Assembly (NCBI GenBank): GCA_937903035.1
Contig: CALCZP010000003.1
Coordinates: forward strand, 65,156-129,155
Origin: an uncultured bacterium
Lineage (GTDB): Bacteria > Patescibacteriota > Minisyncoccia > Phycocordibacterales > UBA9973
Reading direction: 5' to 3'
DNA: 64,000 nt
Shown here: positions 1 to 44,651 of the stretch, piece by piece
Layout: every line of letters begins with the position of its first letter
Position numbering within the stretch: the first letter of the stretch is position 1
Notes under the pieces: model-generated
Databases searched by the model: none
What the model was told of the DNA's origin: nothing
Seen by the model: only the letters and a program-made list of their open reading frames with translations
Position numbers and translations under genes: made by a program

Positions 1-3000
1 AGTCGATTCTCCTCCTCTTTCTTTGCTGCGGCAAATGCTGCAGATGCGCTCGGATCTTTCTTGAGGCGTTCAATAATATCATTTTTGAGTTCGACCAGTT
101 TAAGGTGTGCCTTTTGTTCCACTTCTTTACTATTTGCGAGTCGAGATTCCATACCAGAACGTTGGTCTGGGGTAAGGTTTGTGTTTTGGAGTTGCTGCTC
201 CATTTGTTTTTGGTATTCTTGTTGTTGTTTGATGACTGCTTGTTGCGGAGCATTTTTAATTTCTGGTTCTTCATCGATTTTATCTTGCCATTTTTCTGAA
301 GCTGCTTTCTGAGCCTTAGTATCTCGATATGTACTCCATGTTGAGCCTGCACTACCATCAGATACCGCACTAAAGTCGAGTTTTGCATCATTTTTCTTCT
401 GACGTGCTTCAACACGTGCCTTGTCGATCTTTTGAATACCACCTGCTTTGTCTTGTCCTACACCGAGCTTCTTGGAAAACTTGTCGCTCATAGAAATACC
501 CAGATCTTTGCCGGCAGTATCCATAGTCTTGTTGAAAGTACCACCAAGTGTTGCTTCCTTGCCATTGATCTTGATACCGAGGCCTAGGTTTCGAGCATCA
601 AATGATCCTGTCTGACTTTTGTTGTAAAAGTTATTGAGCTGTCTGTTGAAGAATCCGTTGTTCGCATTTGCTGCCCAGCGATCAGCATTGGTCTTGCCAT
701 CCTTGCCTTTGATTGAGCCGATGGCAGTCATTCCTCTCCCTATAACATTTCGTCCAAGGAGTGCTGCCCCGCCTGCTGCAATACCTACGCCGCCACCAAC
801 GATACCGCCAACACCTCCAACAAAGCCATTTACGCCATTTTGAACTGCATTACCAATCTTGCCGCCATATTCCTTGGCAATACCTGCTGCCTGTTTGATG
901 AGGGTATAGATAATGAGCATTGGGATTGTGATGTAGAGTACATTTTCAAAAAATGAGTGATCGCTTCTGGTGAGGCCAAACTCATTGAGAAAGTCTGTCT
1001 GCAAGAATGAATACACAATATAGAGAAAGAAAATAAAGATTGGCGCAAGCATTGCATAGCTTGTGAGTTCCTTGACCCAGCTATCCCATGTGAGCTCCCT
1101 GATACCACTAATCAGTGGGAGTTTGCCTCGTGAGAGAAATGCAAATGGTGAGAATATCATACAAATATAGAGCCCGACGACACGCCCGAGGAACATAAAT
1201 GATACCCCCCAGAACATGAGCGCTATGGCAAACATGATCGCAGCACCAATGAGTGTGACAATAATGAAGTATCCCGCGTATTCGCTTGATGACAGACTCA
1301 TGTTGTTACCACTCTCCAAACTTCCTGTATTAATAGTGCCATTTGAAGCACTTGTTGAGGCGCCAAAACTTGTTGCAGTTCCTGCTGATTTGTCAGTGGT
1401 ACTTGCAGTTGTTTCTGTTCCAGATGATGAGAGTGTTGAAGAGCTCAGAATGGTTTGAGGATTAAACGATGACACGATCTTTTCAGACAGTGGCCAGTAT
1501 CCTCCTATTCCTCTCTTGTACTCAACTTTTCCTGTCGTTGGATCTGGTGAACAGTCCTTGGTACTACAGACACCGAGCTGGTTGTAGAACACTCGTGCTA
1601 CTACGTTTGAAAGGTCAATCACCACTCGTGTACCAAAGAGACTAAAGTTGATGATGAGTGCATTGATGACGAGTGTCGGTACGACCTTCTTCATACTGAT
1701 ACCTCCTATGCTAAATACCGTCGAAAATCCGGTCCACACAAGGATAATAATGAAGAATATGTTGGCAATATCACGTACGAGCTGCCAGCCAGTGTTGACG
1801 AATGCAAACCGATATGACTCATCACTCACTGAGTACCCGATAAAGAAGTCAAATAGATAGCCAAAAAGTGCTGCGATCCAGCTGATCGGTTTAAAAATAA
1901 GTCCGTAGATAATCTGTGCTACACAGCCAAGAACACTACCACTAACGATCCCGCATTCAGGAAGTCCACCGTTTGCATCTTGTTTGATAACTTCTGTAAC
2001 ACCCGCAGCAGTTTGTCCTGCATCATTCAATGCTGCAGCATAGTTGGGTGGTATTTTGTACGTGACAGTTTCTCCTATTTTAAAGTAACGATTATCATCT
2101 TTTTGCAACATGTACGCATCGTTTATACATCCCGTTTTGCAGCCAATTTGTTTCAAGCCATCTGGTTGACCAGTAGTTGAAGGATAAATAGTTTGATAAT
2201 AGTAGTCATTATTTGTATTTGGGTTATATACATAAAATTCACCAGAAGGAGTTTTTTCACCACCTATATTTGTTGAAGTATCAGTTATTTGTCTTGATGG
2301 CCAGTTTACGTTACTAGTTAGACCGGCAGAGTCACTTCCAAGTTTTTGATCCCAATAAAGCGTATCTCCTTTGTACCAAAGATCAACTTTTATTTCAGAA
2401 CCATATTTAATAGGGGTTGTAGGTTTAAAAGTTGTTCGTATTTGCTGTTTCCCTATAACTTCTTGTTTACTATTACCAAAAAAAATTCCTGATGCATCGT
2501 ATTTTTGAAAATAGAAAAATTTTGATTGTTCAGCTGCCGCACCAATTGTTGCAGTTTTATCCCAAAGTTTCTCTGTCTTAATAGTTTGATACTCAGTGTG
2601 TGCCTTACCATCTTTGTCAGTATATTGAATCCTTACGATGTAAGGATCAGAACTTTCATTATGTACATAACTATAAAACCACGCGCTTGGCTCAAGAGGA
2701 GTTCTATTTTTAGCAGCACTAACTCCTTTCCACCATCCATAAAGATTTTTATCTCCGTCCATGACAAGCCATGGTAGAAAATTGACCTCAATAATCCCTC
2801 CAGGATCCGTAGTTGCATTCATCTTTGCCTGAATTGCAGGTGAACCATCAGTGCCATTTATAAAACCACTTGATTGAGCAGTACTATCTAAAGTACAAAA
2901 AAGTGTTTTGAAATAGTAAAGTCGATCTTCTTTTGTAACATTTCCGCAAGGAGAAGAATCTTCTGGTTTTACTTGTGCAAATAAATTTGTTCTTACTGTA

Positions 3001-3098
3001 AAAAAGGTAAGTGAGAAAAGTAAACAAAAAACTATCGTTTTAGATAAACGTTTAAGAGAGAGTGTAATACGAAAAAATACGCGTGCGTGCACTGACAA
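1..3098 (-). CDS. Large polytopic membrane protein (>1030 aa, 3' end beyond window start): signal peptide, ~330-aa Cys-containing extracellular domain, multi-TM core, Gly-rich and coiled-coil C-terminus; VirB6/TrbL-like architecture
   Basis: One minus-strand frame is open from the window edge to 3098; no M-to-stop ORF is in the track because it is truncated. A spot translation at 1501-1562 gives TKDCSPDPTTGKVEYKRGIGG. An in-frame TGA lies at 3105-3107. The first in-frame ATG is at 2822, but upstream of it a signal-peptide-like sequence (KRLSKTIVFCLLFSLTFFTV...AQV) is only reachable from TTG(3098) or GTG(3092). Confidence 0.5.
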   Translation of the reverse strand, partial: MSVHARVFFRITLSLKRLSKTIVFCLLFSLTFFTVRTNLFAQVKPEDSSPCGNVTKEDRLYYFKTLFCTLDSTAQSSGFINGTDGSPAIQAKMNATTDPGGIIEVNFLPWLVMDGDKNLYGWWKGVSAAKNRTPLEPSAWFYSYVHNESSDPYIVRIQYTDKDGKAHTEYQTIKTEKLWDKTATIGAAAEQSKFFYFQKYDASGIFFGNSKQEVIGKQQIRTTFKPTTPIKYGSEIKVDLWYKGDTLYWDQKLGSDSAGLTSNVNWPSRQITDTSTNIGGEKTPSGEFYVYNPNTNNDYYYQTIYPSTTGQPDGLKQIGCKTGCINDAYMLQKDDNRYFKIGETVTYKIPPNYAAALNDAGQTAAGVTEVIKQDANGGLPECGIVSGSVLGCVAQIIYGLIFKPISWIAALFGYLFDFFIGYSVSDESYRFAFVNTGWQLVRDIANIFFIIILVWTGFSTVFSIGGISMKKVVPTLVINALIINFSLFGTRVVIDLSNVVARVFYNQLGVCSTKDCSPDPTTGKVEYKRGIGGYWPLSEKIVSSFNPQTILSSSTLSSSGTETTASTTDKSAGTATSFGASTSASNGTINTGSLESGNNMSLSSSEYAGYFIIVTLIGAAIMFAIALMFWGVSFMFLGRVVGLYICMIFSPFAFLSRGKLPLISGIRELTWDSWVKELTSYAMLAPIFIFFLYIVYSFLQTDFLNEFGLTRSDHSFFENVLYITIPMLIIYTLIKQAAGIAKEYGGKIGNAVQNGVNGFVGGVGGIVGGGVGIAAGGAALLGRNVIGRGMTAIGSIKGKDGKTNADRWAANANNGFFNRQLNNFYNKSQTGSFDARNLGLGIKINGKEATLGGTFNKTMDTAGKDLGISMSDKFSKKLGVGQDKAGGIQKIDKARVEARQKKNDAKLDFSAVSDGSAGSTWSTYRDTKAQKAASEKWQDKIDEEPEIKNAPQQAVIKQQQEYQKQMEQQLQNTNLTPDQRSGMESRLANSKEVEQKAHLKLVELKNDIIERLKKDPSASAAFAAAKKEEENR

Positions 3099-3124
3099 AT
3101 TGTATCATTTTTGGAGAGCGCAAA

Positions 3125-4042
3125 CTACCAGAGATTGAGACGAAGTGAATCTTCAATGATGAAATCTGCCGGTGCAGCAAAGCCATTACTATTACAGCTG
3201 TATCCGTCTCGAGAGCTACCATGAAAATGGAACCATCCATCAGAACTACGACATGCGTTAAGTCGTGTTGGAAGTGGTGTGAAGAAATAGCGAAGCATGT
3301 CCCCTGCTTCATGCCAAAATGGTGTTGCTACTTTGACCTTAAGCTCTGGCTGGGTAAAGATTGGAGCTTTGGTCTGACACCAGGCAGTGAGCTCGGTTGC
3401 TCGCTTGACTGTGTAGTTGTACTCATCAAAGTTATCGCGCTCTTGGTTTGCGTCAGCGCTGTTGTGGAGTCGTGAGGCAATGCGCTCAAACCGTGCACGG
3501 AGTCTATCGAGATCTGCACGTTCTTGGTCAGTAAAAGCAATATTTGTGTCTGCTTCGCTACAGCCTGCCCCAAGCGTTGTTGGTGTTGTTCCAGATCCTC
3601 CTGTCCCTGGGTTGCTCGCGGTCCCGGATGTTGTTGTAGTGGTTGTTCCTCCACCACTAGAGGTGCCACTACCGGGCATACCTCCGATACTAATACCTCC
3701 AGAGAGGTTACTATCCCCAAGAGGAGTAATCGTATCACTCGTAAAGTTGCTAGTGAGTACTTGTCCCCCACCTGTATTTATATTGTCACCAAATGACCCA
3801 TCACTATTCATAGGAGTACTCGTAGTTGAGCTAGTAGTATCAGTAAAGTCTGATGAGAGTTCACCATTTGCACCTGTTTGTCTAGTGCCTTTGCCGCCAA
3901 GTCCGATAAATTCTCGGAATGTTGGGGCTGTTCTACCGTTTTGCACAGCAATCTTGCGACTTCGCTGCCACAATACTCCCACAGTTGCGAGTATGAGGAG
4001 TATGAGAGCAATGATACTAATGATGACTCCGCGCTTTGTCAT
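3125..4042 (-). CDS. Hypothetical membrane-anchored protein (N-terminal TM, Gly/Thr/Ser-rich linker, C-terminal globular domain)
   Basis: 305-aa ORF; TM helix IISIIALILLILATVGVL; GTS-rich low complexity (TSSGGGTTTTTTSGT); tight operon spacing to neighbours. Confidence 0.55.
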   Translation of the reverse strand: MTKRGVIISIIALILLILATVGVLWQRSRKIAVQNGRTAPTFREFIGLGGKGTRQTGANGELSSDFTDTTSSTTSTPMNSDGSFGDNINTGGGQVLTSNFTSDTITPLGDSNLSGGISIGGMPGSGTSSGGGTTTTTTSGTASNPGTGGSGTTPTTLGAGCSEADTNIAFTDQERADLDRLRARFERIASRLHNSADANQERDNFDEYNYTVKRATELTAWCQTKAPIFTQPELKVKVATPFWHEAGDMLRYFFTPLPTRLNACRSSDGWFHFHGSSRDGYSCNSNGFAAPADFIIEDSLRLNLW

Positions 4043-4044
4043 GG

Positions 4045-6366
4045 TTATATAGTACTATAGAAATAATCTTTTGCGGCTTTTGACTTCTGTATATCTGGAT
4101 TTGGAGTGTTGTCATCAGTCTGCCTATCGCGTTTGTTGTCCGCATTAACGTCATCAGGATTGATCTTGTTGTTGTTGATGATGTATGCCTGATTGATACA
4201 TGCGAGATCTACTGGAGTACCATTTGCTGCTTGTTCTGCAATATAGCGAGCTTTTGCTGCGGCAACGATTCGGTTTACTTCTTTACGGAGATCTTCGAGT
4301 TCGCGAATTGCGCGGCGCGCGTCCTCCTCATTTGCTTCATACTGGGTAAGTGTGTCTGGCATGTTTTGGCTATACGCAGGGAGTCGTGAGATCTGATCTG
4401 CCATATCCTCCGCATTACCAATAGCGCTCAGTTTGCCACTCTCCGTTGACTCGGATGCTTCATAGATATCGGAGATACGCTTCTTGGCGAATGCGGGCTT
4501 GTACTTGGCGACGAGTCGTTCAAATGCCCTATCAAATATATCGTACTTGCTATCATCAAATGTTTCTCGACCGTCCATTGGATAGTCTTTTGTTTTGCTC
4601 GGATCAATCTGAGTCTTGTCATAGAGTAGCGCGTTGACATGATACTCTGATTCATCACCAGAAAGTCCTGTTCCTCGTTCATCAGTCTGATATATCGCGC
4701 TGACCCATGTTTGGTAGTTGTTTACGAGACCTTCTTGCCATGTTGGGTTTGGTCCTGGATAGCAGTAGTCGAGTTTGCCAAGGGCTGGGATCACTGATTG
4801 GATTTTGTTGTGTGCGTCATATGTACGATTTAAAAAGTTGTACTGGTCAATAAGGATGGCATAGAGCATCTGTGGTCGAGTAATATCAAAGTCTCCCCCA
4901 ATACCGCTTGCGCCACTCACATTACTTGTCTTGATAGGATTGCCGTTTGAATCAAGGACAACATTGAGATCCCCTACTCCTGCATAGTCATTAATACCTG
5001 CTCGCCCACCGAGTGCCGCGAGACCCTTACTAAAGAGGTTGTTCACAAGCTTATCAAAAAATGAGCTGAGTACTTCGTTCATACTGTCGGCAAGCTCGAG
5101 TTGACTCTTTGTTGATCCAGTAACACCAGCAATTTGTTCAGCAATGATGGATCCTGGAGTTACTGTTTTGTATTTCAAACATTTTGGTTTCCCACTTGAA
5201 TTTGCAGGAGTTGGGGCATTACATGCTTTGACAAGATCGTCATATTTCTTGTTTACTCCTGATTTACACGCAGCAATTGCAGTTGTGTTTTGTACTGGGC
5301 CGGTCAGCGCACTGGTGACTGTTGTATTGGATACGACACAGGTTTGGAGCTCTTGAGTACGCTCAACACTATATTTTGCTGTACAAGAGTCTGTCGATGT
5401 AGCAGTCTCAGTCTTGACTGTCTGAGGTTTTTCCCATTCAACACATTCTTTCATATCAAGAAAGCCATTGTTCCGCTGTATCTCTGCCTGGGTTGCTGCC
5501 TGTTTTTCATCTATTTTTTGTTCTAGCTTGCTTGCTGCTGTCATCACTGCACCGATGGGATTGTTACTATCTCTCTGGGTAGTGTTGAGCCACGCATTCC
5601 ATCCTCCCTGACTAAAGTCACTCATGAATGAATTGTACGCCTTTGCTTGGGGCGTGTTCATTGTTTTATTTATGAGACCATCACTTTTACCAGTGAGTTG
5701 CTGGGTGACTGTTGATCGAAGTGCGTTTCCAAATATAGGGTTGCTCCCCTGTAGTGTTGTGAGGTATTGCTCAACCTCACGATCTTTGATGCGCTTGAGA
5801 AATGAATTCTCGTCTTGCACATAGAGCGGGTTGCCGCCAAAGCCGGTGTTTGCCCAGTTGATAGTACTCGTTGAAAGTTGTTGGAGCATTTTCTTGGCAA
5901 TGGTGTAGGCTGCCCCATCAAGACATGTTTTGGCGTTTTTGAGTGTTGCGTCTCCAACTGGAACTTCCTTACTAGCCAGGCTTGAAAGTGCCTGGGTTGC
6001 AAGACCCATAAGACCCTGAATTGCAGCGTTTTTTGCGCAGCCAATGACTGCAGCACTGGTGACACTCAGGAGACTATTTCCAAAGCTATTAGCGTTGCTG
6101 TTGCCTAGACCGTTAGTAGTACCCCCAGTTGTACCGCTACTATTTGTTGTTCCTGTTGTACCTGTCCCAGTACTTCCGGTTGTCCCTCCAGTAGTGCTAC
6201 CAGTTGTACCACCAGTGTTAGTACTTCCTGTAGTGCCAGTCCCTGTACTACCTGTACTACCGCCAGTGTTTGTTGATCCTGTAAGTCCGGGATTTGTTTG
6301 TGCACTCACTTGCACTGAGCTTGAAAGAGTGAGGATAAGTAGTACTACAAAAAATGCATTCTTCAT
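4045..6366 (-). CDS. Large secreted protein with N-terminal GT(S)-rich repeat region
   Basis: 773-aa ORF; signal peptide MKNAFFVVLLILTLSSSVQVSAQ; degenerate GSTGTGTTGST repeats; 3 nt from downstream gene. Confidence 0.6.
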   Translation of the reverse strand: MKNAFFVVLLILTLSSSVQVSAQTNPGLTGSTNTGGSTGSTGTGTTGSTNTGGTTGSTTGGTTGSTGTGTTGTTNSSGTTGGTTNGLGNSNANSFGNSLLSVTSAAVIGCAKNAAIQGLMGLATQALSSLASKEVPVGDATLKNAKTCLDGAAYTIAKKMLQQLSTSTINWANTGFGGNPLYVQDENSFLKRIKDREVEQYLTTLQGSNPIFGNALRSTVTQQLTGKSDGLINKTMNTPQAKAYNSFMSDFSQGGWNAWLNTTQRDSNNPIGAVMTAASKLEQKIDEKQAATQAEIQRNNGFLDMKECVEWEKPQTVKTETATSTDSCTAKYSVERTQELQTCVVSNTTVTSALTGPVQNTTAIAACKSGVNKKYDDLVKACNAPTPANSSGKPKCLKYKTVTPGSIIAEQIAGVTGSTKSQLELADSMNEVLSSFFDKLVNNLFSKGLAALGGRAGINDYAGVGDLNVVLDSNGNPIKTSNVSGASGIGGDFDITRPQMLYAILIDQYNFLNRTYDAHNKIQSVIPALGKLDYCYPGPNPTWQEGLVNNYQTWVSAIYQTDERGTGLSGDESEYHVNALLYDKTQIDPSKTKDYPMDGRETFDDSKYDIFDRAFERLVAKYKPAFAKKRISDIYEASESTESGKLSAIGNAEDMADQISRLPAYSQNMPDTLTQYEANEEDARRAIRELEDLRKEVNRIVAAAKARYIAEQAANGTPVDLACINQAYIINNNKINPDDVNADNKRDRQTDDNTPNPDIQKSKAAKDYFYSTI

Positions 6367-6369
6367 GTA

Positions 6370-7257
6370 TTACCGAAGTATACCGTATCTAATGAAATAT
6401 TCCTGCATCCCGAGCAGTGAAGTACCAAGTCGATCCGAATAGCTATTGTAGATAGCGATACCTGCAAGTGCTTGGGTGCTGTTATTTTCAAGCTGCATAA
6501 GATAAGTAAACGATGCAGCAATACCATAGAGGCTGTTGGCGATATCAAGATGGTATTTAGATACACCGATTGGCGCAGGGATTTTCATGAGTGCAGCAGC
6601 GTATGCTTTGTAATCGACCGCTGTTTGGGCAAGCTCAGGGAGACGACTATAGTCTTCATTTTGGAGCGCATTCATCACGACATCGATATCGGCTTGTTCG
6701 AAGTCATATGAGTTGGTGAGTTTACCAAATGCTGTTGCATATGTTTGCAGCGATGCTGACGTTGTAGGAACGCTTTTGACATCGTTGAGTGAGTATTTAA
6801 GCCCCACCTTTGCAAGATCGATAGTTGAACCAAAGCTTGCAGCTATCTGTGCAAGTGCAGCATTGTCGGTCTGATCTGACTGTCCAAATGCCGCAGAGAG
6901 TGCAAAAAGATCTCGTGCGAGCTTGTCGGTATCGTTGGTTGGATCACTTTCTTGAATACCAAGGGATTTTTTTTTCTGCTCGATGATTTCTTTATTAGGA
7001 ACACCATTGGTATACAGTACACTAGGATCAAGTCCCCAGAGTTTCTCCTCCCAGTCAGCAATACCATTACCATTGGTGTCTTGGGCAAGAGTCCCTCCTA
7101 CAGTTTTTGGTACAGGCGGTAAGGGTTTTTTGTGAAGCAATGCTCTGAACCAGGTAGTCTGTACCACAAGGAGGATTGCGGTGAGACCAATAGCGATAGA
7201 GCCGCGGATTATGAATTGTTTGCTTGGACGATTAGTATTCATATTAGCGTGATACAC
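6370..7257 (-). CDS. Hypothetical membrane-anchored protein
   Basis: 295-aa ORF with a single N-terminal TM (IAIGLTAILLVV); overlaps the upstream gene by 14 nt, operon-like. Confidence 0.5.
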   Translation of the reverse strand: MYHANMNTNRPSKQFIIRGSIAIGLTAILLVVQTTWFRALLHKKPLPPVPKTVGGTLAQDTNGNGIADWEEKLWGLDPSVLYTNGVPNKEIIEQKKKSLGIQESDPTNDTDKLARDLFALSAAFGQSDQTDNAALAQIAASFGSTIDLAKVGLKYSLNDVKSVPTTSASLQTYATAFGKLTNSYDFEQADIDVVMNALQNEDYSRLPELAQTAVDYKAYAAALMKIPAPIGVSKYHLDIANSLYGIAASFTYLMQLENNSTQALAGIAIYNSYSDRLGTSLLGMQEYFIRYGILR

Positions 7258-7606
7258 CGTAGAGTTTTACTTCAAATGCAGGAACAGGGACGCCGGTTTC
7301 TGGATTAAAACACGTTTTAGCATCAGGAATAAGGCTACGGTTTCCAAGAATCCATCCTAAACGCTTTGGAGTACCACTTTTTGTAATACGGATAAAATAA
7401 GGACCTGCTGGATAGGCTGCTACTGGGCGTATAAAAAACGGTCCATACGCAGCAGTGCAAGTAATGGTAGCACTTGAATCTGTTGGGGTAGAAATTATTG
7501 ATCCGCCAAATGGACGAGTCGGAAGGCTTATAGCGTAGGATAGTGCAGGAATAAGAAACGCTATGAGAAAAAGTGCGAGCACGATAAGTTTGTGTTTTTT
7601 CATCAC
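7244..7606 (-). CDS. Small secreted protein (signal peptide, 2 Cys)
   Basis: 120-aa ORF; signal peptide MMKKHKLIVLALFLIAFLIPALSYA; first gene of the 7606->1 minus-strand operon. Confidence 0.5.
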   Translation of the reverse strand: MMKKHKLIVLALFLIAFLIPALSYAISLPTRPFGGSIISTPTDSSATITCTAAYGPFFIRPVAAYPAGPYFIRITKSGTPKRLGWILGNRSLIPDAKTCFNPETGVPVPAFEVKLYGVSR

Positions 7607-7618: not shown

Positions 7619-8413
7619 CTACCTTTGAACACTCTCTTCTACATGTTGAGTGACTACTCCCCACTCTCCAAGGGTGAGTTCTTCGGGGCGTGTTTTTGGG
7701 TCAAGCGGAATTTGTGCAAGGACACTGAGTGCTTGATCTTTATCATCCAAGAATTCCGCGAGGCTTCCACCGATTTGTTTTCGTTTTTTACCAAAGAGTG
7801 ACTTCATGATCTCAAAAAACAATTTTTCGCTGGTATGGGTGAAAAAAACTCGCGAAATACACTCTATATATAGTATGGCGGAGTCTACCTTTGGTGGCGG
7901 GTTGAATGCTCCAGCAGGGACTCTGGCAATGACTTTTGGTTTCCCATAGGCACGTACTGCTATAGAAAGAACGCTTTGCTTGCCATCTCGCGCAACGATA
8001 CGATCTGCTACTTCTTTTTGCATGAGGAGTACCATGCTTTGCGGCTGGTACTCAGTGCTCAGAAATTGCTCAATGATCGCACCGGTGATGTAGTACGGGA
8101 TATTAGCGACGAGTTTGTACTTTTTTGGTAGTGTTGATGGGTCAAATTTGAGAATATCTCCCTCGATAATCTCAAGCTTTCCTGCGGTAATAGCAGCTGC
8201 AAATCGTTCTTCGAGTATTGCGATCATATCCCTATCCTTTTCAATAGCGAGTACTTTCTGAGCTTTTCCAATGAGTCGCTCGGTTAAAATCCCGGTTCCT
8301 GGACCGATTTCAAGGATAAAATCCGTAGGTGCGATATCAGCTGCATCAACAATCTGACCCAATGCTTTCTCACTCTTGAGGAAATGCTGTCCGAGTGACT
8401 TCTTTGCTTTCAT
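7619..8413 (-). CDS. rsmA: 16S rRNA (adenine1518/1519-N6)-dimethyltransferase RsmA/KsgA
   Basis: SLGQHFL motif; SAM-binding EIGPGTG; NIPY motif; 264 aa. Confidence 0.9.
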   Translation of the reverse strand: MKAKKSLGQHFLKSEKALGQIVDAADIAPTDFILEIGPGTGILTERLIGKAQKVLAIEKDRDMIAILEERFAAAITAGKLEIIEGDILKFDPSTLPKKYKLVANIPYYITGAIIEQFLSTEYQPQSMVLLMQKEVADRIVARDGKQSVLSIAVRAYGKPKVIARVPAGAFNPPPKVDSAILYIECISRVFFTHTSEKLFFEIMKSLFGKKRKQIGGSLAEFLDDKDQALSVLAQIPLDPKTRPEELTLGEWGVVTQHVEESVQR

Positions 8414-8464
8414 ATAAACTACTCTCTCATATAATCACATAAAAGCGAAGCATATAAAGCGCTC

Positions 8465-10372
8465 TTAGAGATAGACCGTAAATCCTGCCTCCCCTTGTCT
8501 ACTCTCACGCGTAATGAGTTCGTCAGGAATATCCATTAGAAATTCGCTTGGCATTCGCACATCACGCATACCATAGATGGTGCGCATCGATGCATAGGTC
8601 AGATAGAGTTTGTGGCGTGCTCGCGTGATCGCGACGTACATGAGACGGCGTTCTTCTTCGGCATCTGCCCCAGTCTTTTTACTGTCACGTTCACTCGGGA
8701 AAAGCCCTTGTTCAAGTCCTGTTACAAATACGGTCGCAAACTCAAGTCCCTTTGATGCGTGAATCGTCATAAGCTTCACACCTTTTGCTGCTTCGAGATT
8801 ATCCTGATCACTCATGAGTGCTGCCTCCTCGAGGATTTTGTCGAGTCCATCTTCAGTCCCCATTTGATCGTATCTGACGCCGAGCGTTACGAGCTCACGG
8901 AGATTCTCGATACGTTCCTCCGCATCAGGCTCGCCTTTGTAAAACTCTTCCATCTTGCTCTCAGTAATGATGTATTTGAGTGTTGCTGATACGGAGTTTG
9001 TCGTTGCATAGTCCGCAATATTTTCGATGAGTTTGTAGAACTGCTCAACTGACGTCTTTGCTTTGCCGCTGAGACTATCTTTACCTTCCGCAAAGAGTTT
9101 AGTGATAGTGACTTTACCGATACCACGTGTCGGCACATTGATGATACGTTTTATGTCGATGGTACTTTCCGGTGTGAGTGCTGCTCGTAAATATGAGAGC
9201 ACGTCTTTGATTTCCTTGCGTTCAAAGAACTTTACGCCGAGCACTTGGTACGGAATATGATATGAGAGAAATGCTTCTTCGATCGCACGTGATTGAAAGT
9301 TGGTACGAAACAGTACTGCAATATCCTCTGGTAGAGTACCGTTATCGATTGCTTCAATGCATCGCTCAACAATAAAGTTCGCTTCGTCGCTCTCATCATA
9401 TGCACTATAGACGGAGAGCATTTCCCCTTCTGCGTTGTTGGTAAAGAGGTTTTTGGGTTTACGGTAGCTATTTTTGCCAATGATTTCATTCGCTGCCGCA
9501 AGTACTGCTTTGGTCGAGCGGTAGTTTTCCTCAAGGAGCACGACGGTTGCTTCGGGGTAGTCATGTTCAAATTCCAAAATATTTTTGATATTTGCACCGC
9601 GCCATGAGTAGATACTTTGATCGGAGTCACCTACGACACAAATGTTTTTGGTATGTGATGCCAGTGCTTTGGCAATACGGTACTGCACTTCGTTGGTGTC
9701 CTGGTATTCATCCACGTGAATGTGAGACCATCGAGCGTGGCACCATGCTCGTGCTTCTTCATTATCCTCAAGGAGTCTGACAACTTCGGTGAGGAGATCA
9801 TCAAAGTCGAGTGCCTTTTGTTCAATTTTGCTCGCGCGATAGCGCTTCCAGATTTGTCCCGCAAGTCGGTAGTGGGGATTTGCTTCGCTCATAAGTTGCT
9901 CCGGATCAAGAAATGCATTTGCTGAGCGACTGATCGTATTTTTAATACCACGCGGATCATGTGCTTTTGGGTCCATACCAAAGTACACCATCGCTTCCTT
10001 GATCAGTGCGGTTGTATCCCCATCATCGAGGATTGTGAAGCGCTTTGCAGTGCCATTGTATGCACCGAACTTACGCAAGAGGTAGACACAGAGACTGTGG
10101 AACGTTGCGAGAAATGGAAGCTCCTGATGCGACACAAACGGAATATCAGTTACCATGTGCGATACACGTTCGCGCATTTCTTTTGCTGCCTTGTTGGTAA
10201 ATGTCACTGCAAGGATACTTGATGGGCTGACACCGGTGATGATGAGGTGACAAATACGGTGCGCGATGGTCTTGGTCTTGCCTGCACCGGCACCTGCAAC
10301 AATGAGGAGTGGTCCGTCAGTCGTGATCACTGCCTTCTTTTGCACGTCATTGAGTCCTTGGGTGAAATCCAT
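8465..10372 (-). CDS. pcrA: ATP-dependent DNA helicase PcrA/UvrD family
   Basis: Walker A AGAGAGKT; UvrD motifs (DEYQDTN, VGDSDQSIYSWRGA, C-terminal TIHASKGLEF); 635 aa. Confidence 0.9.
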   Translation of the reverse strand: MDFTQGLNDVQKKAVITTDGPLLIVAGAGAGKTKTIAHRICHLIITGVSPSSILAVTFTNKAAKEMRERVSHMVTDIPFVSHQELPFLATFHSLCVYLLRKFGAYNGTAKRFTILDDGDTTALIKEAMVYFGMDPKAHDPRGIKNTISRSANAFLDPEQLMSEANPHYRLAGQIWKRYRASKIEQKALDFDDLLTEVVRLLEDNEEARAWCHARWSHIHVDEYQDTNEVQYRIAKALASHTKNICVVGDSDQSIYSWRGANIKNILEFEHDYPEATVVLLEENYRSTKAVLAAANEIIGKNSYRKPKNLFTNNAEGEMLSVYSAYDESDEANFIVERCIEAIDNGTLPEDIAVLFRTNFQSRAIEEAFLSYHIPYQVLGVKFFERKEIKDVLSYLRAALTPESTIDIKRIINVPTRGIGKVTITKLFAEGKDSLSGKAKTSVEQFYKLIENIADYATTNSVSATLKYIITESKMEEFYKGEPDAEERIENLRELVTLGVRYDQMGTEDGLDKILEEAALMSDQDNLEAAKGVKLMTIHASKGLEFATVFVTGLEQGLFPSERDSKKTGADAEEERRLMYVAITRARHKLYLTYASMRTIYGMRDVRMPSEFLMDIPDELITRESRQGEAGFTVYL

Positions 10373-22627: not shown

Positions 22628-22645
22628 TTATATCGGTATTTATTG

Positions 22646-22717
22646 TGCACCTACCAGGACTCGAACCCAGAATAACGGTTCCGAAGACCGCTGTGATATC
22701 CATTTCACCATAGGTGC
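22646..22717 (-). tRNA. tRNA-Arg (anticodon TCG)
   Basis: Manual fold: acceptor GCACCTA/TAGGTGC, D-stem GTGA/TCAC, anticodon stem GCGGT/ACCGT with loop CTTCGGA, T-loop TTCGAGT. Confidence 0.75.
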
Positions 22718-22824
22718 GCTTGTAATACCATCGACTATACCACTGAATTGACAGAATATAAAGGGATAGTGATTGCAAAATACCGATTGATGGGTATAAT
22801 TATCAGCGCACCTTTTCACAACTT

Positions 22825-22895
22825 GCGGGTATGGTTTAGTGGTAGAATGCGTCCTTGCCAAGGACGAGACCAGGGTTCGATTCCCTGTACCCGCA
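22825..22895 (+). tRNA. tRNA-Gly (anticodon GCC)
   Basis: Acceptor GCGGGTA/TACCCGC, anticodon stem CGTCC/GGACG with loop TTGCCAA, T-arm CAGGG-TTCGATT-CCCTG. Confidence 0.85.
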
Positions 22896-22901
22896 CAACG
22901 T

Positions 22902-22927
22902 AAAAATCCCGAGCAATCGGGATTTTT
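22902..22927 (+). terminator. Terminator after tRNA-Gly
   Basis: AAAAATCCCGAGCAATCGGGATTTTT. Confidence 0.6.
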
Positions 22928-23038
22928 ACGTTGGTAGTGTTCGGACATACTTTTGTTCTTGATACAAGGACAATTTGGACAAAACTGTCTATTAGTGCGA
23001 AAGACATGTTCAAAAAGCTCATTTTTTGACAAAAGTGT

Positions 23039-23069
23039 GGATAAAGGTGTGGGATAAAGGGATAAAGGA
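23039..23069 (+). repeat. Three tandem GGATAAAGG direct repeats upstream of yraN
   Basis: GTGGATAAAGGTGTGGGATAAAGGGATAAAGGAC read directly. Confidence 0.5.
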
Positions 23070-23148
23070 CGACTGATAGATGGCTTTTAACATGTCTATT
23101 TGCTAAAATATCCTTAGTACTCAACAAATTCTGTCAACTAGTGTTATA

Positions 23149-23523
23149 TTGTTTCACGTGAAACACTTTACTTCAAAAACGCAACAAATAGGTCAAGAAG
23201 GAGAAGACCAGGCTCAGATGTTTCTCATGAAACAAGGATTTAGCATTGTTGAACGCAATGTAGCCAACAAGTACGGTGAAATCGATATTATTGCCAAAAA
23301 GAATGAAATTCACTACTTTTTTGAAGTAAAAGCTGGTATGCAGGGAAGCTGGTTTAATCCAGCTGAAAATCTCAGTAAAGCAAAGCTTCGAAAATTTATC
23401 ATCTCTGTTGAGCACTATTGTCTCACGTGTAACATTAGGGAATATCGAGTACAGGGGATTATTGTGCTTTTGCCGCGAGGAGAAAGTGGGGAAGTGAATG
23501 TAGAGATGATTGATCTGATCTGA
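23149..23523 (+). CDS. yraN: YraN family (UPF0102) endonuclease
   Basis: GE..A...L...G..I...N..Y...GEIDIIA...FVEVK pattern. Confidence 0.7.
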   Translation: MFHVKHFTSKTQQIGQEGEDQAQMFLMKQGFSIVERNVANKYGEIDIIAKKNEIHYFFEVKAGMQGSWFNPAENLSKAKLRKFIISVEHYCLTCNIREYRVQGIIVLLPRGESGEVNVEMIDLI

Positions 23524-23584
23524 GTCTTTATTTCTGTATCGCTTTCTGGTACTATGCTTTTGCTCTGTACAGTATGAGAAACAC

Positions 23585-23680
23585 CATATCGAGGTGTAGT
23601 ATATACGGCAGTCCACGGGATTGTGATTTGTACGATTCTATCGAATCATCAAATCGGGAATATCCTTGTTTTGGGAAACG
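23585..23680 (+). pseudogene. Degenerate duplicate of the tRNA-Pro 5' half (D-arm and anticodon arm) split by a ~48-nt insertion; no T-arm or acceptor 3' strand
   Basis: GAGGTGTAGTATATACGGCAGT vs GGGGTGTAGTATATCGGTAGT and CCTTGTTTTGGGAAACG vs ACTTGTTTTGGGAACAAG of the intact gene 120 nt downstream. Confidence 0.45.
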
Positions 23681-23712
23681 CTTGTCGTATATGGCTTAAA
23701 AAGGAAATATCA

Positions 23713-23786
23713 CGGGGTGTAGTATATCGGTAGTATACTTGTTTTGGGAACAAGAGGGCAGGGTTCGATTCCCTGCACCCCGACCA
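23713..23786 (+). tRNA. tRNA-Pro (anticodon TGG), CCA encoded
   Basis: Acceptor CGGGGTG/CACCCCG, anticodon stem CTTGT/ACAAG with loop TTTGGGA, T-arm GGTTCGATTCC, 3' ACCA. Confidence 0.8.
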
Positions 23787-23820
23787 TGATCGCGAAAGCG
23801 GTCACAATAGGAAAACCACG

Positions 23821-23891
23821 CGGGATTAGTTTATCGGTAAAACATCAGTTTTCCAAACTGAGGTGAAGGGTTCGACTCCCTTATCCCGCAC
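23821..23891 (+). tRNA. tRNA-Gly (anticodon TCC)
   Basis: Acceptor GCGGGAT/ATCCCGC, anticodon stem TCAGT/ACTGA with loop TTTCCAA, T-loop GGTTCGACTCC. Confidence 0.85.
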
Positions 23892-36626: not shown

Positions 36627-37799
36627 ATGAATACTCTTTTTAAACAACTCTCACTCTTACTACCTGCACTATGTATTGCTGGTATTGCAGGAGCATATAC
36701 TCCACCTACGACTACCGCTCCAGGGGATAATACCGATGGGCCTATTACGATAGGTGCTACTAATGATGCTAAAAATGGTAGTTTGAATGTTGGTACATTT
36801 CAAGCACGTGGTAATGCATTACTTGCTCAGGATGTGTATGTGTCAGGACTCATCAATGGTGGTCATCCGTCTGATACCACTTCAACAGTGACAATCGGAA
36901 GTGCAGCTACACCAATGAAAACCATTGTTTCTGGAACCATTAGTGCTGCAAATGGGCAGTCGGGAACATTAAGTCATAGTGGAACTGGCACAAAAAATGT
37001 CTGCGCAGCTCCAGACGGTACATACATATTGTGTGGCGCTACTCCTACTGATGTTTGTCCAAATATTGCCGGCGCCCAAGCATCAATTCCTGCAGGAATG
37101 GTTATTAATGGTGCCGGGAATTGTATTGTTGAAGATCAACCAATCGATCCTGGTGTAGGTGGTGCTGGTACAGGAGGAACATTTGCAACTTGTTTTGTTG
37201 CAGATACACGAGTCACTCTTTCAGATGGGTCAAAGAAAAATATTCAGGACGTACAAATTGGTGATGTACTTCGAGGTGAGACTAGTAATAATACAGTGCT
37301 TGCATTTCACCGACCAAAACTCAATGGCATGATTTACTCATTCAATGGCGGACGATATTTTGTGACCGAAGAGCACCCATTCATGACAACTGAGGGGTGG
37401 AAGTCGATTAATCCTGAAAAAACTGCTCTTGAAAATATTGGTATTGAAGTTACCTCGCTTGAAGTAGGTGATACACTCATTACTGATCATGGTCTTGTAC
37501 TATTGACGACGATTCATGGAAAAGCGGAGTCATCTGATACTGATCTGTATAACTTCATGCTCAGCGGTGACCGGACTTACTTTGCTGATGGCTATCTCGT
37601 GCATAATAAAGCACAGTGTAGTGGGTCTACTAGTTGTGGTCCGAACCAGTACTGTATTAATAATGCAGGAGCTGTAATTACATCAGGTGGGGGATCTTGT
37701 TCTCTTGTTTGTACTCCTGGGGGGAATGTACCGACTACTGGATGTCAATCACCAAAAACACCGTATTGTGCAAGTGATAATACTGTTCGCTGTCATTAA
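36627..37799 (+). CDS. Secreted protein with a Hint (Hedgehog/intein-like, BIL-type) autoprocessing domain (37191-37607) followed by a 61-aa tail with 8 Cys
   Basis: Signal peptide; Hint block A CFVADTRVTLSDGSKKNIQDVQIGDVL, block B TEEHPFMTTEGWK, C-terminal block FADGYLVHN; tail KAQCSGSTSCGPNQYCINN...CASDNTVRCH. Confidence 0.7.
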   Translation: MNTLFKQLSLLLPALCIAGIAGAYTPPTTTAPGDNTDGPITIGATNDAKNGSLNVGTFQARGNALLAQDVYVSGLINGGHPSDTTSTVTIGSAATPMKTIVSGTISAANGQSGTLSHSGTGTKNVCAAPDGTYILCGATPTDVCPNIAGAQASIPAGMVINGAGNCIVEDQPIDPGVGGAGTGGTFATCFVADTRVTLSDGSKKNIQDVQIGDVLRGETSNNTVLAFHRPKLNGMIYSFNGGRYFVTEEHPFMTTEGWKSINPEKTALENIGIEVTSLEVGDTLITDHGLVLLTTIHGKAESSDTDLYNFMLSGDRTYFADGYLVHNKAQCSGSTSCGPNQYCINNAGAVITSGGGSCSLVCTPGGNVPTTGCQSPKTPYCASDNTVRCH

Positions 37800-37811: not shown

Positions 37812-38933
37812 ATGAAAAAAAACCTTCTCACCAATCTCAAATTCATCGCATTCGGTATTGTTGTTGCACTCGGAATGAGTTATGCGTCAGCTGCATGGAA
37901 TGATCCGTCAACGGGGGCGCCTGGTACCAATATTGCGCTCCCTATTCATATGGGGCAAAGTCAGCTCAAAGATGGGGGGCTTTCGGTTAATACGTTTACT
38001 GCATGGCAAAATGCGCACTTTGTACAACAAGTTTTTATTAATGAGATGCTTTCTGCCGTGACTGGATCAACCCTTGTACGGTTTGGAGGGGCTGATGCAT
38101 TAGGGACAACACGAACTGTTGCTGTTGATGTAAGTGGAGGGTTTACAACGACAGGTACTATTAAGGCAGTGAATGTTGCCGGGACCAGCGAAGGAAAACT
38201 TTGTGCAACAGCTGATGGCACTATTGTTCGCTGTGTAGCTCAGGCGGTACCTGCTACATGTGTTATTAATTCTTTTACTTCAAATAAATATAGTGTGAAG
38301 CCAAATGCGCCACAGCTCACTTTTAGCTGGTCAACTACAGGGTGCACGAGTGCTTCTATTAATGGAGTACCACTTTCATCAGTCAATGGAAGCGGGCTCT
38401 ATAATGCACCAACTCAAACAACGGTTTATACACTTACTGCCACAAATGGCACTACTAGTCCTACAAAATCATTTACTATTACGTTCGGCACTCCCCCTGT
38501 CGCAAGTTCAAATATTGCATTGTATTTAAGTGATGTACCATATGTATATAGTACAGGTACTAGTGATGGTAGTAATTATGGATACTCTTTTAAGAGAAGT
38601 TATTACGGAAAAGTGACGCTTGCACCTCAGTATGCTGTTACGCCAGGAACACCATCACCCGAGCTTGAGGTTTGTGGTGACCCTTCTCCAACATCAGCAG
38701 CTGTCTGTGCTTCTCAAAATCCTAATCCAAATAATAATCCACCACCTGATATTGAGCAGATACAACATGGTGATTATACCGTCATATTTAACGGTCTTTG
38801 TCAGAACAGTCCGGGTATGGCTAACGGTTCACCGTCTCTTCACTATAGGAATGGTGATGGAAGTGTAGGCAGTCTCGTTCCGAGTTCAATAAATATTAGT
38901 GGAATGGTCGAATTTATCGCCTCATGTCTATAA
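37812..38933 (+). CDS. Secreted paralog of the 36627 and 38938 proteins (shared N-terminal domain, Ig-like Cys-pair domain)
   Basis: First 57 nt identical to 38938; conserved GGLSV..F.A.QNA.F ... TRTV ... C.ADG.IV.C block. Confidence 0.6.
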   Translation: MKKNLLTNLKFIAFGIVVALGMSYASAAWNDPSTGAPGTNIALPIHMGQSQLKDGGLSVNTFTAWQNAHFVQQVFINEMLSAVTGSTLVRFGGADALGTTRTVAVDVSGGFTTTGTIKAVNVAGTSEGKLCATADGTIVRCVAQAVPATCVINSFTSNKYSVKPNAPQLTFSWSTTGCTSASINGVPLSSVNGSGLYNAPTQTTVYTLTATNGTTSPTKSFTITFGTPPVASSNIALYLSDVPYVYSTGTSDGSNYGYSFKRSYYGKVTLAPQYAVTPGTPSPELEVCGDPSPTSAAVCASQNPNPNNNPPPDIEQIQHGDYTVIFNGLCQNSPGMANGSPSLHYRNGDGSVGSLVPSSINISGMVEFIASCL

Positions 38934-38937
38934 ACAT

Positions 38938-40176: not shown

Positions 40177-40180
40177 AAAA

Positions 40181-44650: not shown

Positions 44651-44651
44651 T

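Follow-up and report, generated by a model that had tools for sequence, protein, structure and literature searches.

An Extended VirB6/TrbL-like Gene and Four Exported-Protein Genes Adjoining Type IV Secretion Genes on a Paceibacteria Chromosome

Gene Organization at the Locus

The window analyzed here is a 64,000-nt stretch of contig CALCZP010000003.1 (405 kb). Positions 1–7606 hold five minus-strand genes spaced by 1–32 nt and encoding proteins of 119, 290, 773, 305, and 1260 aa, denoted p120, p295, p773, p305, and the giant protein (Table 1). The last gene is cut by the window edge at residue 1030. The tight packing described in the first-pass annotation was confirmed, and the lengths given there for p120 and p295 were refined. 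ORF 7244–7606 yields 120 aa from a GTG start and 119 aa from the conserved ATG at 7603. ORF 6370–7257 yields 295 aa from a GTG start and 290 aa from ATG 7242; the latter start was assigned because the conserved N-terminus “M.....LPSK.F” of the alignment and the called gene agree. ORFs 4045–6366 and 3125–4042 encode p773 and p305, respectively. The frame of the giant gene is open from TTG 3098 or GTG 3092 (the called start) and leaves the window at position 1. As had been proposed, these two codons are the sole in-frame starts before the hydrophobic N-terminus; the ATG at 3108 lies in another frame. The gene also continues past the window edge: the complete protein (P0001) contains 1260 aa, and the window holds an identical copy of residues 1–1030 (the 5′ 82%).

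The genes for p120 and p295 are separated by 1 nt (or overlap by 14 nt with the GTG start), those for p295 and p773 by 3 nt, those for p773 and p305 by 2 nt, and those for p305 and the giant protein by 26–32 nt. The gaps of 1–3 nt suggest translational coupling of the upstream genes. The five genes are not chance ORFs, because each has homologues in dozens of genomes with the order kept. An N-terminal hydrophobic segment appears in the hydropathy profile of all five proteins, in agreement with the signal peptide or anchor originally assigned to each; an LPXTG sortase signal is absent from all five.

The operon as first delimited holds for the five genes and not for its 5′ boundary at 7606. The unit is not bounded there, because ksgA ends just 15 nt upstream of the p120 gene; uvrD lies a further 51 nt upstream. 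The operon very probably begins at uvrD–ksgA, and both genes are probably cotranscribed with those downstream. UvrD and KsgA are housekeeping context and not parts of a type IV secretion system (T4SS).

Table 1. Coordinates of the features identified at the locus
Feature	Position (nt)	Strand	Basis
UvrD/PcrA-type helicase	8465–10372	-	Pfam UvrD-helicase
KsgA/RsmA	7619–8413	-	Pfam RrnaAD
p120 (119 aa), small secreted protein with signal peptide and two conserved Cys	7244–7603	-	ORF, hydropathy, conservation
p295 (290 aa), bitopic membrane protein	6370–7242	-	alignment invariants P6, S7, D55, E66, G70
p773, secreted; signal peptide, Gly/Thr-rich linker (nt 6073–6300), helical body	4045–6366	-	ORF, homologues, AlphaFold2
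Degenerate 75-nt ×2 direct repeat, part of p773 Gly/Thr linker	6115–6264		TRF and repeat search, 73–75% identity
p305, N-terminally anchored; Gly/Ser/Thr-rich linker (nt 3551–3727)	3125–4042	-	ORF, TM, tract, conservation
Extended VirB6/TrbL-like polytopic membrane protein (giant protein)	1–3092	-	open frame, start codons, P0001, position upstream of p173-PrgI-TrsD-VirB4, TrbL/VirB6 evidence
Giant protein, signal peptide (residues 1–40)	2973–3092	-	hydropathy; basic n-region, hydrophobic core, conserved “AQ” at 39–40
Giant protein, variable beta-rich extracytoplasmic N-terminal domain (residues 41–385), 5 Cys	1938–2972	-	AlphaFold2 strands
Giant protein, conserved polytopic core (residues 386–800)	693–1937	-	invariant alignment columns, pLDDT 80–90
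Giant protein, charged C-terminal tail, first half (residues 801–1030)	3–692	-	composition

The Giant Membrane Protein and Its Relation to TrbL/VirB6

Residue A39 of the giant protein is nearly invariant in the family alignment, and the signal peptide would be cleaved. AlphaFold2 strands were obtained at residues 87–346 of the N-terminal domain with mixed pLDDT, and Foldseek gave a weak similarity to the beta-sandwich of FlaF (E 0.03). The length of this domain ranges from 59 to 397 aa across the relatives. Hydrophobic segments appear in the hydropathy profile at residues 380–400, 438–492, 603–653, 675–699, 714–736, and 761–779, and long AlphaFold2 helices with pLDDT values of 80–90 lie over them. 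The core contains at least seven TM helices, a Ser/Thr-rich loop (nt 1293–1445) that includes the Gly/Ser/Thr tract at residues 550–581, and a Gly-rich stretch (residues ~744–800), which bears out the earlier description of six or more TM helices with a Gly-rich segment. A simple 7-TM N-out model fits neither the positive-inside rule nor the Cys/Ser-Thr-rich loop at residues 505–602, which leaves the topology ambiguous. The tail of ~460 aa, the last 230 residues of which lie beyond the window, consists of 38–39% K/E/Q/D/R and contains no Cys. Only coiled-coil-type low-complexity matches to the tail were obtained in the PDB, and it is presumably cytoplasmic.

Similarity to TrbL/VirB6 profiles, as predicted in the first-pass annotation, was found at the level of the family and not for the window protein itself, for which there is no Pfam or NCBIfam match and no PDB sequence match. 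With 11,286 representatives at E ≤ 1e-3, the core defines a very large family. PF04610 (TrbL/VirB6) is matched by 3 of 68 family members. Member L073 exceeds the gathering score (28.1 vs 25.9 bits, E 2.1e-6), and the two others score 19–20 bits over the same profile region, 74–214 (of 215). The L073 match falls on the region equivalent to the TrbL/VirB6-like part of the core (residues ~600–750). Comparison of the family core with the R388 TrwI/VirB6 alignment using hhalign provided an E of 1.4e-4 and a probability of 53% over 130 columns. Window-core residues 231–378, in the C-terminal half of the core only, are aligned with TrwI 138–272, pairing TM4–TM7 and an “IA..l.G.iG” motif. When the PDB was searched with the family profile using hmmsearch, TrwI (132–298) ranked second at a nonsignificant E of 0.33. 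The Foldseek comparison with solved VirB6 was not significant (E 1.5, TM-score 0.35); the top 10 matches, none significant, include DotA and TrwI. The family shows no detectable similarity to pCF10 PrgH and a probability of only 10% with Tn916 Orf15. The gene occupies the canonical VirB6 position, adjoining virB3/virB4. These lines of evidence converge on TrbL/VirB6 homology of the giant-protein family.

The giant protein could instead be a functional analogue of VirB6, a non-homologous polytopic recruit whose TrbL signal is an artefact of hydrophobic composition. The empty direct searches, the few members that touch Pfam TrbL, and the insignificant Foldseek result with TrwI are in keeping with this explanation, as are comparable stray matches of members to other TM families (E1-E2_ATPase, and TM7S3_TM198 at E 1.5e-4). 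It is nevertheless improbable, since Pfam, hmmsearch, and hhalign independently choose one collinear region, TM4–TM7 with the Gly-rich “IA..L.G.IG” end, in addition to the one score above the curated cutoff and the position of the gene. Patescibacteria VirB6 was likewise recovered with the MPF-T VirB6 profile (PMC12102498). Homology is preferred, and “extended VirB6” is the most fitting description of the giant protein, which comprises a signal peptide, a variable beta-rich ectodomain, at least seven TM helices, a Gly-rich segment, and a charged tail.

The Four Exported Proteins

The gene order recurs at 80 loci from species representatives labelled Paceibacterota, Nomurabacteria, or Minisyncoccia, and per-gene counts refer to 81 loci. 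p120 was detected in only 27 of these, p295 in 65, and p773 in 67; p305 follows p773 and precedes the VirB6-like gene in 45 and is missing from L085. A short conserved cytoplasmic N-terminus, one TM, and a TSP3-like Ca-binding motif at D55–P73 (nt 7024–7080) were identified in p295, and one member of its family matches PF18884 TSP3_bac (E 5.4e-6). The p295 ectodomain is presumably helical, judging from its sequence; no relatives were found in the PDB. The homologues of p773 (n = 62) are all without annotation. Its body is conserved, Cys-containing, and almost all-helical (AlphaFold2 mean pLDDT of 71.7, with the C-terminal 285 aa above 90) and carries the conserved motifs TINWANTGFxGNP, TPGS..QLE, and LDYCxPGPNPxW; no significant fold or sequence match was obtained in the PDB. 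The Gly/Ser/Thr tract of p773 spans residues 15–98 and is variable, with low occupancy across the homologues. That of p305 spans residues 106–164, and this protein has a small conserved C-terminal domain with a Cys pair.

Slippage-prone nucleotide repeats had been proposed at 6100–6300 and 3580–3700. The first tract contains the 75-nt ×2 repeat at 73% identity, and the second is weak, with only a 17-nt pair (82% identity) within 3540–3740. Proneness to slippage is not supported, the repeats being too degenerate.

No Pfam or NCBIfam match was found for p120 or p305. No match of p120, p295, p773, or p305 to a known family or solved fold was found, nor any detectable relation to VirB5, VirB8, PrgC, or other T4SS parts. 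The earlier placement of these proteins in a T4SS-like or surface-appendage system stands as to conserved adjacency, from which a T4SS role may be inferred, and finds no counterpart in a T4SS family or fold match.

Genomic Context

Extension of the contig beyond position 1 revealed the T4SS components that had been expected outside the window. The giant gene is followed by a gene of 173 aa (p173), PrgI/VirB3 (PF12666, 43.2 bits), a TraC/TrsD-like gene, and a VirB4-type ATPase (P-loop_TraG 87.1 bits, AAA_10 41 bits). After VirB4 come the secreted p316, two T4SS_pilin-module proteins, one of which also carries NlpC/P60 and Amidase_5, a 414-aa protein (p414), and then yidC/yidD. The pilin modules sit inside multidomain proteins of 520 and 566 aa. 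The order UvrD-KsgA-(p120)-p295-p773-(p305)-VirB6-like-PrgI-TrsD-VirB4 occurs in ~80 species-level Paceibacteria genomes and is also kept around the most distant p773 relatives. UvrD/KsgA is directly upstream in 55–61 loci and around the most distant relatives; KsgA near virB4 in Patescibacteria was reported in PMC12102498.

The invariant adjacency and tight spacing are shared equally by UvrD and KsgA, which are clearly non-T4SS. It is conceivable, though rather unlikely, that only the giant gene belongs to the T4SS and that the four upstream proteins form a separate envelope or surface module (wall/S-layer organization, adhesion), placed here only by a gene order that is frozen around the replication origin in this lineage. 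The lack of T4SS family or fold matches and the dispensability of p120 and p305 in many genomes are consistent with such a module. However, every complete locus, even at identities as low as 27%, has p295 and p773 positioned after KsgA and before the VirB6-like gene, and all four proteins are extracytoplasmic. In addition, surface and wall-spanning factors (PrgA/B/C, PrgD) usually come immediately before the channel genes in monoderm T4SS operons, and the short gaps point to coupled translation.

Conjugation, also raised in the first-pass annotation, is unlikely because no relaxase was found in the window ORFs by phmmer with two reference relaxases, TrwC and PcfG. The specific proposal that the cluster belongs to an integrated mobile element (ICE) as its conjugative T4SS and transfers DNA is highly improbable. 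VirB4, VirB3, VirB6, and a hydrolase do constitute the monoderm conjugation set, and a VirD4/T4CP-like gene (TrwB_AAD_bind, 27.6 bits) is present at 25570–28338, 22 kb away. Against this, housekeeping genes (uvrD, ksgA, yidC/yidD) flank the cluster, the chromosomal position recurs across the ~80 species, the GC content of 0.41–0.45 across the region reveals no compositional island, and no integrase appears among the Pfam tags of the called genes of the contig. Relaxases were reported in only ~100 Patescibacteria genomes in published surveys (PMC12102498).

Discussion

The analysis directly supports the structure of the genes, their export signals, their synteny with the T4SS core, and homology to TrbL/VirB6 at the family level. 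With a probability of roughly 0.78, positions 1–7606 are the promoter-proximal part of a chromosomal, origin-proximal Paceibacteria T4SS cluster (MPF-FATA-related, monoderm), in which the giant gene encodes an extended VirB6 and the four preceding proteins are likely surface parts. By analogy with R388 VirB6, the conserved polytopic core may serve as a membrane channel or as a platform for the assembly of PrgI/VirB3 and VirB4. The lineage-variable beta-rich ectodomain would point outward through the wall, and the long charged tail would remain in the cytoplasm. Exported by Sec or anchored N-terminally, p120, p295, p773, and p305 are most likely the components that lie outside the cell, span the wall, or make contact, and the Gly/Ser/Thr tracts would be flexible spacers. 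The role as a channel, the topology, the involvement of these four proteins, and the substrate of the system are inferred.

The T4SS of Patescibacteria has been described as MPF-FATA-like, located near ksgA/dnaA, and usually without a relaxase (Quinonero-Coronel et al. 2025, PMC12102498), and it is essential in Southlakia epibionticum, SEML1_0006-0019 (Wang et al. 2023, PMC10633639). The present cluster shares the host lineage, the modules (VirB4, TrsD/TraC-like, PrgI/VirB3, VirB6-like, VirB2-like pilin modules, wall hydrolase), and the chromosomal site next to ksgA, near yidC/rnpA and close to the origin; likewise, the window yielded no relaxase, and the T4CP-like gene lies some distance away. 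In contrast to the published systems, this Paceibacteria version has a 1260-aa VirB6-like protein with a large ectodomain and tail, and the protein escapes direct HMM detection. In the published survey, 2,474 virB4 genes stand against just 480 detections of VirB6 (PMC12102498). Neither PMC12102498 nor PMC10633639 names a counterpart of the four conserved exported proteins encoded upstream, and the pilin modules reside in multidomain proteins rather than in a small-pilin array.

As in TrbL/VirB6 (PF04610; R388 TrwI, PDB 7O3V), a polytopic helical core is followed by a Gly-rich C-terminal segment, and the C-terminal half of the core is collinear with TrwI, although the sequence similarity of the window protein is at the detection limit and its fold does not match solved TrwI significantly. 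Canonical VirB6 proteins contain 300–350 aa, whereas the giant protein adds a cleavable-type signal peptide, an ectodomain of ~345 aa, and the charged tail. Extra large hydrophilic domains are likewise present in the “extended VirB6” proteins of Alvarez-Martinez and Christie, as these are cited in PMC12857230. The operon logic is that of enterococcal pCF10 prg/pcf, the MPF-FATA prototype, with surface and wall proteins first; the order VirB6, VirB3, VirB4, hydrolase equals prgH-prgI-prgJ-prgK, and the PrgI family match is common to both. Unlike pCF10, the cluster shows no detectable similarity to PrgH, PrgC, PrgD, or PrgL, has no LPXTG sortase signal in any of the five proteins, has no adjacent relaxase or coupling protein, and is chromosomal and vertically conserved rather than plasmid-borne.

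The T4SS type itself is already known from Patescibacteria, as published in 2023 and 2025; the accessory proteins are uncharacterized. Analogy with Southlakia suggests a system required for epibiotic growth rather than one that carries out conjugation.

Gene Organization and Transcription Unit

Five successive open reading frames are present on the minus strand between window positions 1 and 7606, as the first-pass annotation had described. Four of these (p120, p295, p773, and p305) precede the gene for a giant membrane protein, here called the big protein. The lengths of 120 and 295 aa originally given for the first two products are reduced to 119 and 290 aa, as both starts are placed at internal ATG codons by the conserved N-termini in the family alignments and by gene calling on the contig of origin. 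The proposed TTG or GTG start of the big gene is correct, because the ATG at 3108 lies in another frame and was ruled out. The spacings between the five genes are, in order, 1, 3, 2, and 26–32 nt. The coordinates of all features are collected in the table.

Coordinates of features in the window, on the source contig (locus L001), and in the encoded proteins
Feature	Sequence	Position	Strand	Details
Big gene	window	TTG 3098 or GTG 3092, exits at position 1	-	open frame
p305 ORF	window	3125-4042	-	ORF scan
p773 ORF	window	4045-6366	-	ORF scan
Repeat in p773 tract DNA	window	6115-6264		75-nt unit, two copies, 73% identity
p295 ORF	window	6370-7257	-	conserved start ATG 7242, 290 aa
Predicted Ca-binding motif (D55-P73) of p295	window	7024-7080	-
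p120 ORF	window	7244-7606	-	conserved start ATG 7603, 119 aa
UvrD and KsgA	window	7619-10372	-
Four tRNA genes	window	22645-23891		Arg-TCG, Gly-GCC, Pro-TGG, Gly-TCC
VirD4/T4CP-like coupling-protein homologue	window	25570-28338	-	923 aa; TrwB_AAD_bind 27.6 bits (>20.5), TraG-D_C 20.7 bits (just <22)
ORF near pilus genes	window	36627-37796		weak Hint/AXH-like matches
Type IV pilus gene cluster	window	~38900-46440	+
PilB/T2SSE ATPase	window	40197-41978	+	412 bits
PilC/T2SSF	window	42002-43210	+	185 bits
Prepilin with N-methylation motif	window	44093-44647	+
PrgI/VirB3	L001	14364-14756		PF12666, 43.2 bits (cut-off 27)
VirB4-type ATPase	L001	15456-17270		P-loop_TraG 87.1, AAA_10 41.4, DUF87 29.6 bits, each above cut-off
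520-aa paralogue	L001	18239-19801		downstream of virB4, outside the window
566-aa paralogue	L001	19822-21522		downstream of virB4, outside the window
Gly/Ser/Thr-rich tract	p773	residues 15-98
Gly/Ser/Thr-rich tract	p305	residues 106-164
Gly/Ser/Thr-rich tract (loop)	big protein	residues 550-581
AlphaFold2 core helices	big protein	residues 387-422, 430-459, 467-504, 603-646, 669-698, 714-741		pLDDT 80-90

The genes for UvrD and KsgA are always found immediately 5' of the T4SS block and on the same strand, including in the most distant relatives. KsgA ends 15 nt before p120 and UvrD ends 51 nt before KsgA. With such gaps, the probable start of the transcription unit is near the divergent intergenic region at ~10.4–10.56 kb rather than at 7606, and a single transcript may be common to the housekeeping and T4SS genes. 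Beyond UvrD/KsgA is a LysM-peptidase M23 gene with divergent transcription. No usable operon boundary was obtained from a consensus promoter scan, which returned fewer promoter-like sites than shuffled sequences, or from a terminator scan, which detected no intergenic minus-strand terminator.

All five proteins are exported or anchored. A hydrophobic N-terminal segment appears in the hydropathy profile of each (five of five), in agreement with the signal peptides or anchors initially assigned to them. The LPXTG motif is absent from all four upstream proteins, and sortase anchoring of the Gly/Thr-rich proteins was rejected on this basis. The DNA for the p773 tract contains a duplicated unit, and that for the p305 tract contains only a 17-nt pair of 82% identity. 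The repeats reported in the first-pass annotation thus exist, but they are too degenerate for frequent slippage to be argued; the length of the p773 linker varies strongly between species.

T4SS Genes beyond the Window

The 1030 residues of the big protein encoded in the window are identical to those of P0001 (1260 aa), a protein from the 405-kb metagenomic contig that carries L001, the locus extending beyond window position 1. Downstream of the big gene, L001 carries, in order, genes for a 173-aa protein, PrgI/VirB3, a 213-aa TraC/TrsD-like protein, a VirB4-type ATPase, a secreted 314-aa protein (p316), two paralogous proteins (520 and 566 aa), and a 414-aa anchored protein, and then, on the opposite strand, yidC/yidD. 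Thus, T4SS components are located immediately outside the window, as had been expected, and the big gene is adjacent to VirB3, VirB4, hydrolase, and pilin-module genes. A precomputed PF26593 TraC-like tag on the 213-aa gene was not reproduced by hmmscan; proteins of the TrsD/TraC-like type share homology with the N-terminus of VirB4.

The 520- and 566-aa paralogues have in common an identical central segment of ~130 aa that spans a T4SS_pilin-like two-helix module (PF18895, 5–71 of 71), with scores of 18.5 and 18.8 bits that are under the cut-off of 26.6. The N-terminal beta-rich parts flanking this segment differ between the two. The 566-aa protein also matches Amidase_5 (26.0 bits, >21) and NlpC/P60 (25.8 bits, >23) and, judged from its sequence, would represent a fusion between a VirB2-like hairpin and a cell-wall hydrolase in the VirB1 role.

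The cluster is chromosomal, with KsgA/UvrD upstream and yidC/yidD downstream. Of the T4SS homologues proposed for checking, VirB4 is present on L001; no relaxase is matched in the window using phmmer with TrwC and PcfG. A T4CP-like gene is located ~22 kb away. This combination of no relaxase match in the window and a distant T4CP-like gene agrees with the published picture of Patescibacteria T4SS repurposed from conjugation (PMC12102498, PMC10633639). It is very improbable that the cluster is an ICE-borne conjugation system.

Identity of the Big Protein

No match to TrbL (PF04610) was obtained with hmmscan for either the 1032-aa window product or the 431-aa core at E ≤ 1 or E ≤ 10. The big protein has no match in Pfam, NCBIfam, or the PDB sequences, and hmmsearch of its full-length profile against the PDB returned low-complexity coiled-coil noise only. 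The conserved core (residues 370–800) was aligned in 68 relatives, of which only three match PF04610, all on the same region. The core from one related locus, L073, scores 28.1 bits (gathering score 25.9, E 2.1e-6, residues 179–322 versus profile 74–214 of 215), and those from L065 and L069 score 20.3 and 19.2 bits, below the threshold. The L073 protein is related to the big protein of the window with E 2e-56 to 2e-57.

When the core profile was used to search the PDB with hmmsearch, TrwI, the VirB6 protein of R388 (PDB 7O3V), ranked second (E 0.33, collinear). An hhalign comparison of the core alignment with an alignment of 44 TrwI-family sequences gave E 1.4e-4 and a probability of 52.8% over 130 columns, spanning TM4–TM7 and the 'IA..L.G.IG' end of the core. 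With the single TrwI sequence the values were E 9e-4 and 23%, and with Tn916 Orf15 the probability was only 10%. The AlphaFold2 model has a mean pLDDT of 70 and a core of 80–90 that is folded as a helical bundle. At least five TM segments are indicated by both hydropathy and the AlphaFold2 helices. Foldseek detected no PDB structure at E ≤ 1e-3, with DotA and TrwI within the ten best. The gene occupies the canonical VirB6 position 5' of virB3-virB4, like prgH in pCF10; hhalign detected nothing between the core and PrgH.

Because of the TrbL matches, the rank of TrwI, the hhalign comparisons, the AlphaFold2 and Foldseek results, and the gene position, the big-protein family is considered a very divergent branch of the TrbL/VirB6 homologues, with a probability of roughly 80%. 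The VirB6/TrbL-like identity first proposed is supported through a family member (L073), but not as a direct Pfam match of the window protein.

The big protein consists of a signal peptide, a beta-rich ectodomain, at least seven predicted TM segments with a Ser/Thr-rich loop, a Gly-rich segment, and a Cys-free tail of ~460 aa that is 38% charged. This architecture fits the 'extended VirB6' class of PMC12857230. The ectodomain varies from 59 to 397 aa across relatives and shows a weak FlaF-like beta-sandwich match (Foldseek E 0.03).

Four Upstream Proteins

Direct scans with p120, p295, p773, and p305 provided no meaningful Pfam or NCBIfam match, and p295 and p773 have no relatives among the PDB sequences. 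Protein p295 is bitopic, with an invariant cytoplasmic N-terminal motif (P6, S7) and, just outside the membrane, a predicted thrombospondin-type-3-like Ca-binding motif, 'DTNGNGIADWEEKLWGLDP'. The near-invariant pattern of the latter is D-x-N-x-N-G-I-x-D-W-E-E-x-L-W-G-L-D-P, and one p295 orthologue matches TSP3_bac (E 5.4e-6). Protein p773 combines a signal peptide and a variable Gly/Thr linker with a conserved body, in which invariant Cys and the motifs TINWANTGFxGNP and LDYCxPGPNPxW occur. Its AlphaFold2 model is formed almost entirely of long helices, with pLDDT >90 for the C-terminal 285 residues. Foldseek with this model detected no PDB structure at E ≤ 1e-3; the nearest, nonsignificant structures are Tc-toxin A subunits, flagellins, and alpha-pore-forming toxins. 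Protein p305 is anchored and carries a linker and a small Cys-paired domain. The small secreted protein p120 contains two Cys; it was rejected as a VirB2 pilin, as it has a signal peptide and a soluble Cys-containing domain and no hairpin.

Nine accessory-family alignments were compared by hhalign with single proteins of pCF10, R388, and Tn916. No similarity to VirB5 (TrwJ) or to VirB8-like NTF2 proteins (PrgD/PrgL/TrwG) was detected (probability ≤6%), in a test of low power because PrgI versus PrgI also failed. The invariant position, near-zero gaps, and extracytoplasmic location of p120, p295, p773, and p305 suggest that they belong to the T4SS. Because the same synteny and tight spacing are seen for two genes outside the T4SS, UvrD and KsgA, an unrelated envelope module formed by the four proteins is retained as a fairly unlikely alternative to this assignment.

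Conservation across Paceibacteria

In a scan of one genome per species for relatives of the big protein, tblastn confirmed 111 candidate stretches, of which the best 80 were kept as loci. The labels of these best 80 are nearly all Paceibacterota, Nomurabacteria, or Minisyncoccia, with one short contig labeled Crenarchaeota. The L001 proteins were then compared with six-frame ORFs of the loci using phmmer. The gene order is near-invariant: UvrD-KsgA-(p120)-p295-p773-(p305)-big-(p173)-PrgI-TrsD-VirB4-p316-p520/p566-p414. Among 81 loci, many of which are incomplete, the big protein is detected in 81, PrgI in 68, p773 in 67, p295 in 65, VirB4 in 60, p305 in 45, and p120 in 27. The order from the big gene to PrgI/VirB4 is the same in 60–68 loci. 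The same arrangement is found even around the p773 relatives at the limit of detection (27% identity), one of which lacks p305.

At E ≤ 1e-3, 1e-10, and 1e-30, a search with only the core of the big protein gathers 11,286, 4,001, and 1,047 representatives, respectively, of clusters defined at 50% identity; this is a major protein family rather than an oddity. The cluster is vertically conserved at an origin-proximal chromosomal site, and the ksgA and origin-proximal setting is the same as that reported in PMC12102498. Many of the related MAG contigs (titles of L027–L081) were deposited as 'uncultured Candidatus Saccharibacteria' and L069 as 'Crenarchaeota archaeon'; these records are probably mislabeled or misbinned, because all carry the Paceibacteria-type cluster.

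Other Features of the Window

A type IV pilus gene cluster is located on the plus strand, and several ORFs near the pilus genes are unannotated. Four tRNA genes are found within 1.3 kb. The cumulative GC skew is flat to ~22 kb, and from there it increases steadily up to 64 kb.

Proposed Function and Significance

The cluster is a Patescibacteria T4SS (MPF-FATA-related) of the type already described in 2023 and 2025. Southlakia is reported to need its T4SS for epibiotic growth (PMC12102498, PMC10633639). Few other machines have been shown to be essential to a cultivated patescibacterium living as an epibiont. In a published survey, VirB6 was found in only 480 cases versus 2,474 virB4 genes, with almost no VirB8 or adhesin components (PMC12102498). 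Neither the giant divergent VirB6-like protein of Paceibacteria nor the conserved families encoded upstream of it, p295 and p773 together with p305 and p120, appear in the portions of PMC12102498 and PMC10633639 consulted. In Paceibacteria the VirB6 slot is filled by a very large, highly divergent probable homologue with a core family of >11,000 representatives (50% identity).

If R388 and monoderm systems are taken as a model (PMC12857230), the VirB6-like core would form oligomers in the membrane, situated over the ATPase complex of VirB4/VirB3. The ectodomain of the same protein, together with p295, p773, p305, p120, and the pilin-module proteins, may form a wall-spanning or contact structure in which the Gly/Ser/Thr tracts would serve as flexible spacers, and the charged tail may recruit cytoplasmic partners.

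The locus falls short of establishing a new kind of system, and its accessory components are uncharacterized; it will be of use to specialists and is not surprising. The positional conservation of p295 and p773 equals that of VirB3 and VirB4, and both proteins are concrete, testable candidates for the missing extracellular T4SS parts. A more speculative and quite doubtful proposal is that p295, p773, p305, p120, and the variable VirB6 ectodomain form an undescribed Paceibacteria-specific extracellular stalk or contact apparatus, with p773 as the distal tip or a host-membrane-engaging (translocon-like) element. If this were true, the apparatus would stand in for the absent outer-membrane core complex and for VirB5/VirB8, and material would pass between these ultrasmall cells and their hosts through the Cys-stabilized, long-helix p773.
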